This document shows positions 41,238-48,424 of a stretch of DNA of 64,000 nt, piece by piece. The stretch's first letter is position 1, and each line of letters opens with the position of its first letter. This stretch comes from a phage, in the sequence record PZ445524.1; one strand, given 5' to 3'. Made by a program: the position numbers and the translations under genes. Under the pieces are notes generated by a model. That model was not told the origin of the DNA and did not search any database. It saw nothing but the letters and a program-made list of their open reading frames with translations.

Positions 41238-43502
41238 TCATAATTTACAGGATGAACAATCTTCAGCTTTTGGAGTTTCTATTTCATAATCATCAGTACC
41301 AGAACCATCACGGGTATTATGATAATAGAAATTTTTAATGCCATAATACCATCCGTATAGCATGTCATCAATCATTATTGACATTGGAACCTTTCCCTTT
41401 GGAAAAATCTGCGGGTCATAGTATGTATTCGCTGAAGCTGATTGACATACCCATTTCAGCATAATAGCTACCTGCGTAAGATAAGGTTTATTACCTTTCT
41501 TAGCTAATTTCCATGTATAATCATATAGGTCTATGTTATGCTCAATATTGGGCACGACTTGATTAAAGGAGCCCTCTTTTGATTCTTTAACAGAGACTGG
41601 TCCACGTGGAGGCTCGATGCCGTTTGTACTGTTAGAAACTTGGGAAGATGACTCACATGGCATAAGTGCTGATAATGTGCTATTACGGATGCCAAATAGC
41701 TTAAGGTCTTCCCGCAGCGACGACCAGTCACAAACGTATTTTGGAGCTGCGATTTGGTCAATCTTTTTATTGTACCAGTCGATAGGTAATTCGCCTCGAG
41801 ACCAACGAGTGTCTGAATAATATTCGCAAGGTCCTTTTTCTTTGGCGAGCTTAATGGATGCTTTAATGAGTCCATACTGTAATCTCTCAAATAGTTCATG
41901 TGTTAAATCGTTAGCATCTTCATAAGAAGCAAAGTTACTTGCCAGCCAAGCTGCATAGTTAGTAACACCTACACCAAGGTTACGACGCTTTTTAGCTTTT
42001 TCTGCTTCAGGAACTGGATATCCTTGGTAATCCAACAGATTATCAAGAGCACGAACTTGAACTTCTGCCAATTCATTAATTTTATCTTGGTCTTGCCAGT
42101 CAAAATTATCCAGTACGAAGGCAGAGAGAGTACACAACCCAATTTCAGCATCAGGACTATTCACATCATTTGTTGGAATAGCAATTTCACAGCACAAGTT
42201 ACTCTGACGAATAGGTGCCTTTTCACGAATAAACGGAGTATAGTTATTCGTATTATCAATGAACTGTACATAAATCCTTGCTGTTCCTGAACGTTCAGTC
42301 ATGAGCAATTCAAATAGTTCACGGGCTTTAATACGCTTTTTACGAATATTAGGGTCTTTTTCTGCTGCTTCGTATAATTCACGGAAACGGTCTTGGTCTT
42401 TAAAATAAGAATAATAAAGCTCTCCACCCATTTCATGCGGACTGAACAAAGTAATGTAATCGTTCTTTCCAAAACGTTCCATCATCAAATCATTCAGTTG
42501 AACGCCATAATCCATATGACGAATGCGGTTTTCTTCTACGCCTTTGTTATTTTTCAAAACGAGAAGATTTTCAACTTCCAAATGCCAAATAGGATAATAA
42601 GCAGTAGCAGCGCCGCCACGAATTCCACCCTGTGAGCATGATTTAACTGCAGTCTGAAAATGTTTCCAAAAAGGAATAACACCGGTATGGCGTACTTCAC
42701 CCATGCCAATCTTAGAACCTTCGGCACGAATCATACCAACGTTAATACCAATTCCAGCGCGTTTAGAGATATATTCAACAATTGAAGCGGAAGCCTTATT
42801 GATAGACTTCAGCGAATCACCTGCCTCAATAACAACACATGAACTAAACTGTCGAGTCGGAGTACGACAACCAGCCATAATAGGAGTTGGCAATGAAATC
42901 TGTCGAGTAGATACTGCTTCATAAAAACGAATAACATGTTTTAATCTATCAACAGGTTCATCTTGATGCAATGCCATTCCAATAGTCATAAATGCAAACT
43001 GTGGAGTTTCATAAATTTGACCAGTGGTTTTATCTTTAACTAGATATTTTTCTTTTAATTGCATCGCCCCGGAATAAGTAAATTCCATATCCCGCTCGTG
43101 CTTAATTTTTGATTCTAAAAATGTAATTTCTTCTGCTGAATATTTTGACAATAATTCAGGGTCATATTTACCTTCATTTACACAGTAAGAAATATGGTCA
43201 ATAAATGAACGTGGTTCATACTGCCCATAAACATGCTTACGAAGAGCGAACATTAAACAGCGTGCAGCTACATATTGATAATCAGGTTCTTCAACCGAAA
43301 TAGAATTCGCAGCAGCCTTAATGACAATAGTCTGAATATCATCAGTTGTCATTCCATCACGGAGATAAGATTTAATATTTTCATATAATTCATAAGGATC
43401 TACTGATGTTCCTTCAGCTGCCCAAGATAAAACTTTAATAATTTTTTGTGGGTCAAAGCTCTGAGAAACACCACTACTTTTGATAACATTAATTAATTGC
43501 AT
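41238..43502 (-). CDS. nrdA: ribonucleotide reductase alpha subunit NrdA
   Basis: 754 aa, T4 NrdA length; class Ia RNR large subunit. Confidence 0.95.
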   Translation of the reverse strand: MQLINVIKSSGVSQSFDPQKIIKVLSWAAEGTSVDPYELYENIKSYLRDGMTTDDIQTIVIKAAANSISVEEPDYQYVAARCLMFALRKHVYGQYEPRSFIDHISYCVNEGKYDPELLSKYSAEEITFLESKIKHERDMEFTYSGAMQLKEKYLVKDKTTGQIYETPQFAFMTIGMALHQDEPVDRLKHVIRFYEAVSTRQISLPTPIMAGCRTPTRQFSSCVVIEAGDSLKSINKASASIVEYISKRAGIGINVGMIRAEGSKIGMGEVRHTGVIPFWKHFQTAVKSCSQGGIRGGAATAYYPIWHLEVENLLVLKNNKGVEENRIRHMDYGVQLNDLMMERFGKNDYITLFSPHEMGGELYYSYFKDQDRFRELYEAAEKDPNIRKKRIKARELFELLMTERSGTARIYVQFIDNTNNYTPFIREKAPIRQSNLCCEIAIPTNDVNSPDAEIGLCTLSAFVLDNFDWQDQDKINELAEVQVRALDNLLDYQGYPVPEAEKAKKRRNLGVGVTNYAAWLASNFASYEDANDLTHELFERLQYGLIKASIKLAKEKGPCEYYSDTRWSRGELPIDWYNKKIDQIAAPKYVCDWSSLREDLKLFGIRNSTLSALMPCESSSQVSNSTNGIEPPRGPVSVKESKEGSFNQVVPNIEHNIDLYDYTWKLAKKGNKPYLTQVAIMLKWVCQSASANTYYDPQIFPKGKVPMSIMIDDMLYGWYYGIKNFYYHNTRDGSGTDDYEIETPKAEDCSSCKL

Positions 43503-43819
43503 AAGTCCTCAACTTGAAAATCGTCTTTAAACAATCGGTTAACTATATGAGCTATTATATCACCATGACACGGCTTTGGTTTACATGTGCATCCTAGCCT
43601 CATTCCACGTAAAGGCTCTAAATGTGCTTTAGTTATTTCTCCGGATTTAATTCGACGTATAAAATCTTTTTTGAATAATTCAATGGCAGCCGGGAGGCTG
43701 CCAGCATCTTTACCGACGTAATTTCCCCAAAATGTACCGCGGTGAATATTAACATCAAAGTCGGATTTGTATTTATTCACTACCCGGCATAGACGGCCCA
43801 CGCTGGAATAATTCGTCAT
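43493..43819 (-). CDS. small Cys/His-motif protein (WGN...CxCxPxPCHGD, DUF4326-like)
   Basis: 108 aa; motifs FWGNYV and [15 protein letters not shown]. Confidence 0.6.
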
Positions 43820-44036
43820 ATTGTTTTTCCGTTAATACAGTAATATCGTAGTAACAGTCAGAAGAAGTTTTAACTGTGGAAATTTTATTATCAAAATACT
43901 CACGAGTCATTTTATGAGTATAGTATTTTTTACCATAAATGGTAATAGGCTGTTCTGGTCCTGGAACTTCTAACTCGCTCGGGTTAGGAAGTGTAAAAAG
44001 AACTACACCAGAAGTATCTTTAAATCGTAAAATCAT
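43773..44036 (-). CDS. hypothetical protein
   Basis: 87 aa ORF between td exon 2 and nrdA. Confidence 0.55.
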
Positions 44037-44055
44037 ATATCCTCACAATTAATAA

Positions 44056-44367
44056 TTACACCGCCATCTTTCCTTTAATAGGAGGGTGTGATACATAGTT
44101 GTTAAGAACGAAATCTTTAGGCCTAAGTTTAAGAACATATTTTAATTGTTCTTTAGTAGAAAGATATCGGAATTTATAAGGTAGACCACTTATTACCAGC
44201 TCACAAAGCTCTTTAGGTTCACGCCTCAAAATTTCTTTACATTGTTCTACGTGATTCATATAGATATGAGTATTACCACCAGAAAATATCAAATCCCCTG
44301 GAATAAGATTACACATCTTAGCTACAATATGAACTAACGTAGCATATGATGCAATATTAAACGGTAG
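44056..44367 (-). CDS. td: thymidylate synthase, exon 2
   Basis: 103 codons LPFNIASYATLVHIV...; intron ends ...ATAATG with terminal G at 44368. Confidence 0.9.
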   Translation of the reverse strand, partial: LPFNIASYATLVHIVAKMCNLIPGDLIFSGGNTHIYMNHVEQCKEILRREPKELCELVISGLPYKFRYLSTKEQLKYVLKLRPKDFVLNNYVSHPPIKGKMAV

Positions 44368-45383
44368 CATTATGTTCAGATAAGGTCGTTAATCTTACCC
44401 CGGAATTATATCCAGCTGCATGTCACCATGCAGAGCAGACTATATCTCCAACTTGTTAAAGCAAGTTGTCTATCGTTTCGAGTCACTTGACCCTACTCCC
44501 CAAAGGGATAGTCGTTAGGCATTTATGTAGAACCAATTCCATTTATCAGATTTTACACGATAAGTAACTAATCCAGACGAAATTTTAAAATGTCTAGCTG
44601 CATCTGCTGCACATTCAAAAATAACCCCATCACATGAAATCTTTTTAATATTACTAGGCTTTTTACCTTTCATCTTTTCTGATATTTTAGATTTAGTTAT
44701 GTCTGAATGCTTATGATTAAAGAATGAATTATTTTCACCTGAACGATTTCTGCATTTACTACAAGTATAAGCAGAAGTTTGTATGCGAACACCGCACTTA
44801 CAAAACTTATGGGTTTCTGGATTCCAACGCCCATTTTTACTTCCGGGTTTACTGTAAAGAGCTTTCCGACCATCAGGTCCAAGTTTAAGCATCTTAGCTT
44901 TAACAGTTTTAGAACGTTTCTTAATAATTTCTTCTTTTAATGGATGCGTAGAACATGTATCACCAAACGTTGCATCAGCAATATTGTATCCATTAATTTT
45001 AGAATTAAGCTCTTTAATCCAAAAATTTTCTCGTTCAATAATCAAATCTTTCTCATATGGAATTTCTTCCAAAATAGAACATTCAAACACATTACCGTGT
45101 TTGTTAAAAGACCTCTGAAGTTTTATAGAAGAATGGCATCCTTTTTCTAAATCTTTAAAATGCCTCTTCCATCTCTTTTCAAAATCTTTAGCACTTCCTA
45201 CATATACTTTATTGTTTAAAGTATTTTTAATCTGATAAATTCCGCTTTTCATAAATACCTCTTTGAATATAGAAGTATTTATTAAAGGGCAGTCCTACAA
45301 TTTAGCACGGGATTGTCTACTAGAGAGTTTCCCCGTTTAGATAGATTACAAGTATAAGTCACCTTATACTCAGGCCTCAATTA
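44368..45383 (-). mobile_element. group I intron in td (1016 nt) carrying I-TevI
   Basis: 5' splice after ...CTTGGGT; intron begins TAATTGAGGCCTGAGTATAAGG; length equals the T4 td intron. Confidence 0.9.
44515..45252 (-). CDS. I-TevI: I-TevI GIY-YIG homing endonuclease
   Basis: 245 aa; GIYQIKNTLNNKVYVGSA GIY-YIG motif; zinc finger and C-terminal DNA-binding region. Confidence 0.93.
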   Translation of the reverse strand: MKSGIYQIKNTLNNKVYVGSAKDFEKRWKRHFKDLEKGCHSSIKLQRSFNKHGNVFECSILEEIPYEKDLIIERENFWIKELNSKINGYNIADATFGDTCSTHPLKEEIIKKRSKTVKAKMLKLGPDGRKALYSKPGSKNGRWNPETHKFCKCGVRIQTSAYTCSKCRNRSGENNSFFNHKHSDITKSKISEKMKGKKPSNIKKISCDGVIFECAADAARHFKISSGLVTYRVKSDKWNWFYINA

Positions 45384-45932
45384 ACCCAAGAAAACATCTA
45401 CCGAACGTTGATACCACTGCAAATCCAAATAGCCATTACGAACATTAAATTGATAAAACATATGACAAGGCGGTAATGCCATCTGCTTGAGTTCAGCTGG
45501 ATTCCATGCTGAAACAATTTGACGCCTATCATTTGGCAGTTTTTTAATACGATCAATAACTTCTATAATTTGGTCTACACCACCAAAATCACGCCACTGT
45601 TTTCCATAAATTGGACCAAGTTCACCGCTATGGTATCCTAAATCTTTTGCTTGATTTTCGTAATTTTCATCCCAAACTGTTTTGCCTTGGATTAACGAAT
45701 CATGCTGAATTAATCGTAAATCATTGACATTTGTGCTTCCTGATAAAAACCATATTAACTCGGCAATGCAAGCTTTCCAGGCGAGCTTTTTAGTTGTTAC
45801 TGCAGGAAAACCTTTGGTTAAATCCCAACGCAATTTAGTACCGAACAAAGCAATTGTTCCTGTGCCTGTTCGGTCATCGGTTTCATAACCATTTTCAAAA
45901 ATGTCTTTAATTAAATCTTGGTATTGTTTCAT
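45384..45932 (-). CDS. td: thymidylate synthase, exon 1
   Basis: 183 codons MKQYQDLIKDIFENGYE...; catalytic PCH; exons total 286 aa. Confidence 0.92.
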
Positions 45933-45977
45933 TTAGTACCTTATATAAATTATAATACATTTTATGAAGCTAAATAA

Positions 45978-46325
45978 TCAATACGGTTTAGCATCAAATT
46001 TTCTCTCAATTTCAGGTGTGAAATATAATTCTTTACCACGTTTGGAAAAGCGACCAATAATATGATAATTATTCTCATCAAACGTGATATTACCAATATC
46101 CATAGCTTTCAACCAAATATCGATATTTCTATCCAGCTTTATGTCAAAATTCCAATACGGAGAACTATTACCGAAAATACTGCAAGCGGATTCAGTGAAA
46201 CAACTGCTATAAATCTTGTCTTTAGGAACTACTAATTGATAGACACCTTTAATAAACTGAGGACCTTGCCATTTTGGCTGTTTCGCGTCTTTTTCTAATA
46301 GAATAGGGTAATAATTAAAATTCAT
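45978..46325 (-). CDS. hypothetical protein inserted between frd and td
   Basis: 115 aa from ATG 46325 (track starts at GTG 46337); no recognisable motif. Confidence 0.6.
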   Translation of the reverse strand: MNFNYYPILLEKDAKQPKWQGPQFIKGVYQLVVPKDKIYSSCFTESACSIFGNSSPYWNFDIKLDRNIDIWLKAMDIGNITFDENNYHIIGRFSKRGKELYFTPEIERKFDAKPY

Positions 46326-46345
46326 ATTTTCAGCCACGCGTTATT

Positions 46346-47172
<827 letters not shown>

Positions 47173-47182
47173 ATTATTTTCC

Positions 47183-47425
47183 TTAAACAGACTTTTTCAC
47201 AATTTTCCAATCAGCTTTAAACTGCTCGACGTCAGAATGGTAAATCCAAAATCCTGCGCTTTCTCCGTCTTCATAAAGAGGACATCCATCGCATTCATCT
47301 TCCCATCCCATATCGCGTAAAAGATGTTCAGCTTTTTCAACAAGTTCAGAATCTTTACCGATGATATTAAAATACCATTTACCTCTAACTTCCGAATCTT
47401 TGATGCTCTGACGTTGTAATCTCAT
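47183..47425 (-). CDS. hypothetical protein (frd.x cluster)
   Basis: 80 aa from ATG 47425 preceded by GAGGAGAATAAA; track N-terminal extension overlaps the early promoter. Confidence 0.65.
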   Translation of the reverse strand: MRLQRQSIKDSEVRGKWYFNIIGKDSELVEKAEHLLRDMGWEDECDGCPLYEDGESAGFWIYHSDVEQFKADWKIVKKSV

Positions 47426-47453
47426 TTTATTCTCCTCAGTAGTTGATAAGGCT

Positions 47454-47483
47454 ATAGTATCATTACCATAGCCTGTTGTAAAC
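47454..47483 (-). promoter_or_regulatory. T4-type early promoter
   Basis: GTTTAC, 18-nt spacer, TGaTACTAT, then TATCAACTACTGAGGAGAATAAAATG; inverted repeat AGGCTAT/ATAGCCT around the -10. Confidence 0.65.
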
Positions 47484-47485
47484 AT

Positions 47486-47713
47486 TTATTTTTGGATTAA
47501 GCCCATATAAAATTTAGCATCTTCAGGATACATGCCATCACAATACTCATTGGTCATAAAACTAATAAGGTCTTCAAGAGGACCTTGGACTTCAATTTGA
47601 ATACTAAAGAATTGGGTGTCTTTAATGTAAGCCATACTCAAAGAAGGATAACGATTGCGGATAACTTCGTAAGTGTATTCAAAATCAACAATATCAATAT
47701 TAACCTTAGCCAT
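47486..47713 (-). CDS. small protein, paralog of 48197..48424
   Basis: 75 aa from ATG 47713 ([13 protein letters not shown]...NEYCDGM), about 50 percent identical to the other copy. Confidence 0.7.
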
Positions 47714-47742
47714 TTTATTTTCCTCATGTAGTTGATAGGGTA

Positions 47743-47772
47743 ATAGTATCACACTACTACCCTACTGTAAAC
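47743..47772 (-). promoter_or_regulatory. T4-type early promoter
   Basis: GTTTAC, 18-nt spacer, TGaTACTAT, then TATCAACTACATGAGGAAAATAAAATG. Confidence 0.65.
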
Positions 47773-48152
47773 TACTTTTTGAAAGTTTTTCGCAAAAGTT
47801 CAATGATTTCGTCTACATTGTTTTCGTCTACAATGCAGTGAATTTTTGTTACGCCAGAAACCAGGTCTTTGACTTCATCTTTTTCAGAAGTCGGTTCTTT
47901 ATACTCACGAAAACAATGAAATTCGTCTTCGCAAATTTCTAAAAGTCTATCTTTGAGGTAAAAATGCTTTCCATTTGCGCATTCAATGTGTTTTACTGCT
48001 TTATATCCATTAGCGACGGAAACTTCTTTAACTTCAAACCATCCGCCATTATCTCGAATGGCTTTAACTATTGATGAATTAGAACGTGGGCTATAATTAA
48101 TAAATGTATCAATAAGTCTTGGAACAAGTTCATACTTTTTACCGGTATACAT
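47772..48152 (-). CDS. hypothetical protein (frd.x cluster)
   Basis: 126 aa ORF. Confidence 0.65.
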   Translation of the reverse strand: MYTGKKYELVPRLIDTFINYSPRSNSSIVKAIRDNGGWFEVKEVSVANGYKAVKHIECANGKHFYLKDRLLEICEDEFHCFREYKEPTSEKDEVKDLVSGVTKIHCIVDENNVDEIIELLRKTFKK

Positions 48153-48196: not shown

Positions 48197-48424
48197 TTAC
48201 TGTTCAATAAATCCTGTGTAAAATTCTACATCTTCAGCATCCATACCGTCGCAGTATTCATTAACCATAAACTGTTTAAGACGATTTAAAGGACCTTCAA
48301 TAACAACTGAAACATTACAATTAGGATCATTTAGTGCGCTTATGATACTAAGTTCAGGATAACGATTACGAATAATTTCTTCAATATATTCAAAATCAAC
48401 AACATCAATATCAATTTTAGCCAT
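48197..48424 (-). CDS. small protein, paralog of 47486..47713
   Basis: 75 aa ([13 protein letters not shown]...NEYCDGM). Confidence 0.7.

Follow-up and report, generated by a model that had tools for sequence, protein, structure and literature searches.

A common small gene of the PHROG 1928 family occupies the frd-td junction of most T-even phages and is missing from T4

The open reading frame (ORF) of 115 codons that lies between frd and td in the window, i.e., the whole 64,000-nucleotide stretch of phage DNA analyzed here, is best explained as a genuine and common gene, the one that normally fills the frd-td slot in the Tevenvirinae, which T4 lacks and whose product is most likely a non-enzymatic binder; we assign this overall reading a probability of roughly 0.8. 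The gene is already known as a common annotated hypothetical gene of T-even phages. It appears as RB32ORF229c, hypothetical protein, in the annotations of T6 and RB51, and annotations of it have accumulated in hundreds of T-even genomes from the RB-phage sequencing projects onward, which leaves it little value as a discovery. The window represents another Tequatrovirus isolate, with a best nucleotide identity of 96.8% to Pu-Krd-SF4 over 18 kb, and there is no difference of substance from the phages that carry RB32ORF229c (T2, T6, RB14, RB32, RB51, AR1, and others), in which an identical or near-identical protein is encoded in the same slot with the same 9-bp repeat.

The features of the junction are collected in Table 1. 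The gap between frd and td measures 413 nt and is composed of a 20-nt spacer, the 348 nt of the ORF including its stop codon, and a 45-nt spacer. These observations bear out the preliminary description of this DNA, which had placed about 420 bp with a 115-aa ORF between the two genes, had stated that frd and td overlap in T4 (by 4 nt, ATGA, in NC_000866, where frd spans 145109..145690 and td ends at 145112), and had judged the ribosome binding site of the ORF to be weak. The Shine-Dalgarno-like GGCTGA of the window reads GGCGGA in T6 and OLB35. The list of ORFs gave a longer version (45978..46337, minus strand) of 119 aa from a GTG at 46337, which is unlikely as an alternative start; the protein read from the ATG begins MNFNYYPILLEK, in agreement with the T6 annotation and with the conserved N termini of the homologues.

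Table 1. Coordinates of the features at and around the frd-td junction of the window
Feature	Position	Strand	Remarks
frd (dihydrofolate reductase), upstream neighbor	46346..46927	minus	stop TGA 46348..46346
Left direct-repeat copy, TAAATGAAATAA	46341..46352	minus	covers the frd stop codon
Spacer frd/ORF, 20 nt, AATAACGCGTGGCTGAAAAT	46326..46345	minus	holds the weak SD-like GGCTGA, 46335..46330
115-aa ORF (RB32ORF229c; PHROG 1928)	45978..46325	minus	ATG at 46325; stop TGA 45980..45978
Spacer ORF/td, 45 nt	45933..45977	minus	td SD TAAGGT, 45943..45938; promoter-like elements
Right direct-repeat copy, TAAATGAAACAA	45924..45935	minus	covers the td start codon
td exon 1 (thymidylate synthase), downstream neighbor	45381..45932	minus	coordinates run to the first in-frame stop codon within the intron
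I-TevI ORF in the td intron	44515..45252	minus	
td exon-2 ORF	44056..44370	minus	

We assessed the constraint on the gene by comparing it with its relatives. The window and T2 differ in the ORF by 14 synonymous and no non-synonymous substitutions, the window and T6 by seven synonymous and no non-synonymous substitutions, and every difference from AugustSocin is synonymous as well. At greater distance, 29 synonymous and nine non-synonymous differences separate it from its counterpart in the Mosigvirus OLB35 (omega of 0.05), and two uncultured relatives whose proteins are 63-66% identical gave omega values of 0.09-0.15. Across all comparisons with a non-zero dN, dN/dS lay between 0.03 and 0.15, a substitution pattern which indicates that the 115-aa ORF is under strong purifying selection.

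A profile match assigned the product to PHROG 1928 (E=8.4e-36, residues 4-111). Scans of the protein and of 23 members of its family against Pfam, NCBIfam, and PADLOC yielded nothing credible, so the earlier statement that the ORF belongs to no recognizable family is right for Pfam and NCBIfam and fails on account of the PHROG match. A word-indexed search for homologues gave just three proteins; HMMER, run exhaustively against 1.84 billion representatives, gave 22 matches at E<=0.001, 20 of them full-length proteins of 95-116 aa. Two longer HMMER matches (P0021 and P0023) were rejected as spurious. Using tblastn, the protein was located in 555 phage records, 363 of them at >=90% amino acid identity and the remaining 192, mostly phages of Klebsiella, Enterobacter, Erwinia, and Citrobacter, at <60%. 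The product is 100% identical at the amino acid level in T2, T6, RB14, and RB6, and its exact sequence is present on 341 contigs, always under the name "hypothetical." PHROG 1928 appears to be a small family that is confined to T4-like phages.

Among all loci fetched for the tblastn map, a PHROG 1928 member sits between frd and td in 26 of the 26 member-bearing loci that include both flanks, and at least five further genera of the Tevenvirinae carry the family in this slot. The slot holders that we checked include Jiaodavirus Mineola, Kanagawavirus Q7622, Roskildevirus Cronus, and Moonvirus CF1, and further ones were found in Pectobacterium phage PM2, uncultured relatives, and IMG/VR contigs. 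In Jiaodavirus, Kanagawavirus, Roskildevirus, Moonvirus, and the uncultured relative L010, the start and stop codons of the gene overlap those of frd and td. The distance from frd to td is about 305 bp around a single copy and about 415 bp for the Tequatrovirus allele; it is 656-736 bp with two copies and 886-889 bp when two copies are accompanied by another small ORF. Where the slot holds a second ORF, it is a distant paralogue of the first (hhalign probabilities of 98.1%, 97.6%, and 90.2%; PHROG 1928 E=1e-16 to 1e-38).

It is the gene-less arrangement of T4 and RB69 that is the rare allele, with T4 as the exception. We surveyed the junction with a 311-nt probe across that of T4, which matched 515 records, and sampled 60 of these at even steps. 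The one-piece T4-type junction was present in only four of the 60 (two T4 records, vB_EcoM_112, and HY03); about 40 had the span of approximately 727 bp that corresponds to the allele of the window, and 11 had a span of approximately 517 bp. Both of the first two states occur in Mosigvirus, where RB69 has the T4-type overlap and OLB35 carries the PHROG 1928 gene. The third, the 517-bp allele, encodes a 68-aa protein of PHROG 9550, as seen in Escherichia phage fHoEco02 (L030:758-964); the start and stop of this gene overlap frd and td, and 135 phage records, JS98 among them, contain it at >=90% identity. Phages with the PHROG 9550 allele (fHoEco02, pSs-1, JS98, and others) have otherwise similar Tequatrovirus genomes and likewise hold a small ORF in the same slot, but its product is unrelated to the 115-aa PHROG 1928 protein. 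It is 81% identical to the product of the ORF that precedes td in L010 (L010:4670-4879), in which the order of the slot is frd-1928-1928-9550-td. As empty, PHROG 1928, and PHROG 9550 states are all found, the space between frd and td can be regarded as a small cassette site that is polymorphic, and T4 is a poor reference for the frd/td junction because its overlap is a rare allele.

The preliminary description had treated the ORF as extra to the T-even arrangement; it is instead the majority T-even allele, with the 363 records at >=90% identity, and stands at the junction in most T-even phages, although not in T4 itself, an outcome close to the one which that description had named as refuting it. 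The proposal that it is an accessory gene is supported: the ORF is absent from T4, dispensable, and polymorphic, and it is therefore an accessory gene, albeit neither an unusual one nor one linked to the td intron.

At this junction the T4 allele differs from that of the window by exactly one 417-bp segment, which is bounded by the 9-bp direct repeat TAAATGAAA; TATAAATGAAA stands at both ends of the insert, and the flanking frd and td products are 97-99% identical as proteins. The two repeat copies of the window have a spacing of 417 and are identical at 11 of 12 nt, the first nine of them exactly. Removal of one repeat together with the intervening 405 nt yields the exact T4 and RB69 junction, TATAAATGAAACAATACC, and the GenBank record of RB51 already carries the note "flanked by 9 bp repeat." With the repeat at both ends of the segment, the two states are able to interconvert by short-repeat recombination. 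The T4 junction could equally be derived from the PHROG 9550 allele, via the shorter repeat AATGA, and slot alleles that are linked by short repeats at ATGA-type junctions make a neat case of modular gene gain and loss. In T4, without the 417-bp segment, there is neither a spacer nor a separate SD for td, which depends on the overlap with frd.

With regard to the direction of the change, deep synteny across genera and the nesting of T4 frd among ORF-bearing phages (T4 Frd is 97% identical to that of the window, inside the 86-99% range of ORF-bearing phages) argue that presence of the gene is ancestral and that T4 would represent a loss. Three other features hint at a re-acquisition into a fused junction. 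The first is a td-start-like fragment on the left, a mini-ORF of two codons (ATG AAA TAA, 46349..46341, minus strand) that overlaps the frd stop and resembles the start of td; it has the appearance of a relic, either of a td start or of a gene that formerly overlapped frd. The second is a possible remnant of a frd 3' end, the spacer stretch GGCTGAAAATATG, which resembles the frd 3' end GGTGAAAAGCGATG of the uncultured relatives L010 and L011. The third is an excess of identity to these same relatives, whose proteins are 63-66% identical to the ORF product although their Frd is just 48% identical; for comparison, the respective values for Kanagawavirus are 44-46% and 48%. Both directions could have operated together, with an insertion that makes the repeat and a repeat that then permits precise excision.

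A separate change was observed at the junction of OLB35 (L012, 94-711). Its frd has two additional A residues ahead of the usual stop; Frd is thereby 12 codons longer, ends ...KNEIATGGKYEF, and reaches into the beginning of the PHROG 1928 gene. In this phage, classified as a Mosigvirus, the ORF and td are Tequatrovirus-like, as is the 3' end of frd, which suggests an exchange between genera.

A promoter and terminator scan gave only generic sigma-70-like matches, with no convincing promoter directly 5' of the ORF, and placed no terminator in the interval that separates the ORF from frd, which makes co-transcription with frd the simplest inference. The ORF is probably transcribed together with frd, td, and nrdA in the early nucleotide-metabolism unit, and its translation would probably start either from the weak SD or by re-initiation past the frd stop 20 nt upstream. 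The spacer on the other side of the ORF, ahead of td, contains, besides the good SD of td, a MotA-box-like element (TTTAGCTTCA, 45974..45965) and a TATAAT (45954..45949), and the scan placed a sigma-70-like site at 45981..45952; this spacer may hold a candidate independent promoter of td that is absent in T4. In OLB35 the spacer before td is only 13 nt, i.e., about 32 nt shorter than in the window.

We then turned to the predicted structure of the product. AlphaFold supplied with four sequences gave a pLDDT of 61.5, and with the 23-sequence alignment it gave a model with a pLDDT of 92 and a pTM of 0.84. The model is a small beta-barrel with strands at residues 6-12, 27-34, 38-40, 48-50, and 62-64, a helix at 68-76, and further strands at 80-82, 86-96, and 99-104. 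With the helix placed between main strands 3 and 4, the predicted order beta1-beta2-beta3-helix-beta4-beta5 would match that of OB folds (SSB, RPA, S1, HIN, and others), as would the conserved aromatic and basic residues in the strand 1-2 loop and in the beta4-beta5 hairpin; the topology of the model may be called OB-like at best. Structural matches were weak, most of them OB folds, and included no significant solved relative. Matches in BFVD were uncharacterized proteins of T4-like phages only, and sequence-profile searches of the PDB with two alignments gave noise (E>=0.04).

Six residues (Q16, W19, G27, G91, K95, and G97) are invariant across both paralogue groups and three more (L9, Y29, and F93) are nearly so. 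Q16 and W19 lie in the loop after strand 1, in the motif QKKW, and G91, K95, and G97 in the last hairpin, in the motif GRFxKxG; in the model, this loop and hairpin would correspond to the usual ligand face of an OB fold. We found no conserved catalytic-type residues, no metal-binding Cys/His clusters, and no nuclease or enzyme motifs in the protein. The lack of catalytic motifs and the location of the invariant residues on the loop and hairpin favor a non-enzymatic binding role, and we infer that the product most likely serves as a binding module without enzymatic activity and is not required for growth. Its ligand might possibly be a single-stranded nucleic acid or nucleotide-type molecule, although nucleic-acid binding is not evident from a net charge of just about +2, or, with the same degree of reservation, a host or defense protein; the Frd/Td enzyme complex seems a less probable partner.

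It is tempting to speculate, as a rather improbable extension of the model, that PHROG 1928 is a new small fold family, a distant OB-like barrel of T4-like phages, that acts with DHFR-thymidylate synthase or soaks up a nucleotide or nucleic-acid ligand such as a host immune signal. If true, this would explain why PHROG 1928 is locked between frd and td, is duplicated in tandem, and is under strong purifying selection. A literature search found no experiment or functional data on the 115-aa ORF. Predicted to be well folded, constrained, and without a solved relative, PHROG 1928 is a low-cost target for functional work in T2 and T6.

Two more specific roles can be weighed against this general one. 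The product could tentatively be seen as a small early protein that neutralizes host immunity or a host housekeeping factor and is kept or lost depending on the host range met. Many non-essential early proteins of T4 have anti-defense or host-takeover roles. In favor of such a role, the ORF is dispensable, belongs to a slot that is polymorphic for three alleles, is frequently duplicated in tandem between frd and td, has small uncharacterized early ORFs as neighbors, and encodes a product without enzyme motifs. Typical arms-race genes, however, do not present the substitution pattern seen against T2, and neither PADLOC nor a comparison with the solved anti-defense proteins in the PDB gave a match to the product; moreover, its position is fixed between two metabolic genes across genera and no phenotype has been reported.

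The fixed position is what would commend the second role, that of an accessory subunit or regulator of phage thymidylate and dNTP synthesis made together with Frd and Td through translational coupling, which we regard as doubtful. The complete frd-td synteny, the codon overlaps with frd and td in four genera and L010, and purifying selection at the level of a housekeeping gene are all consistent with it. However, T4-like genomes generally keep their gene order, so the synteny with frd and td does not prove that the genes are functionally linked; functional Frd and Td are made without PHROG 1928 in T4, in RB69, and in phages that carry the PHROG 9550 allele, the copy number of the gene varies from 0 to 2, and no folate- or nucleotide-binding motif was detected in the product.

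The preliminary description had also considered the ORF as cargo left by a homing event, in view of the intron-bearing td next to it. That it is a homing endonuclease gene itself, or cargo of td-intron homing, is very unlikely, although its presence is patchy among close relatives, a short direct repeat flanks it, the I-TevI target site lies about 600 bp away, and some BASEL GenBank records name it "putative homing endonuclease." We found the ORF together with an intron-containing td in the window, T6, and FL33, and beside an intron-less td of 861 nt in five phages (T2, RB51, AugustSocin, PhiZZ6, and OLB35), whereas T4 has the intron without the ORF and RB69 has neither. As all four combinations exist, the ORF occurs independently of the td intron and the homing-cargo proposal is not supported; the slot is, in addition, conserved in genera whose td is annotated as a single uninterrupted ORF. 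As for an endonuclease, the protein has just 115 aa, no GIY-YIG, HNH, LAGLIDADG, or PD-(D/E)XK domain was detected by Pfam or NCBIfam in it or in the 23 family members, and no nuclease was present among its structural matches, so we rejected the BASEL label. A scan of positions 43500..47500 of the window at the Rfam gathering threshold returned no match, despite the td group I intron in this region, which is probably explained by the large I-TevI ORF inside the intron.

Finally, a spurious ORF within a non-coding spacer, as might be imagined from the weak RBS, the absence of a Pfam family, and the lack of an annotation in the T2 fragment record AY310907.2, is refuted by the substitution pattern, with only synonymous differences from T2, T6, and AugustSocin and low omega at greater distance, and is further opposed by homologues of 26-66% identity that keep the invariant residues and by the confidently predicted fold.

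Two further features lie upstream of frd. A second Phage_FRD3 (PF05798) paralogue is encoded at 47486..47752 (minus strand), between frd.2 (47772..48152) and frd.1/DUF5417 (47183..47485), in addition to the usual frd.3 at 48197..48424; the annotations of T4 and T6 give a single frd.3. An ORF of 81 aa without a Pfam family (46927..47172, minus strand) ends where frd begins and is apparently, by its position and length, the counterpart of T6 RB32ORF231c, and the corresponding region of T4 consists of a 71-nt gap alone between frd.1 and frd.
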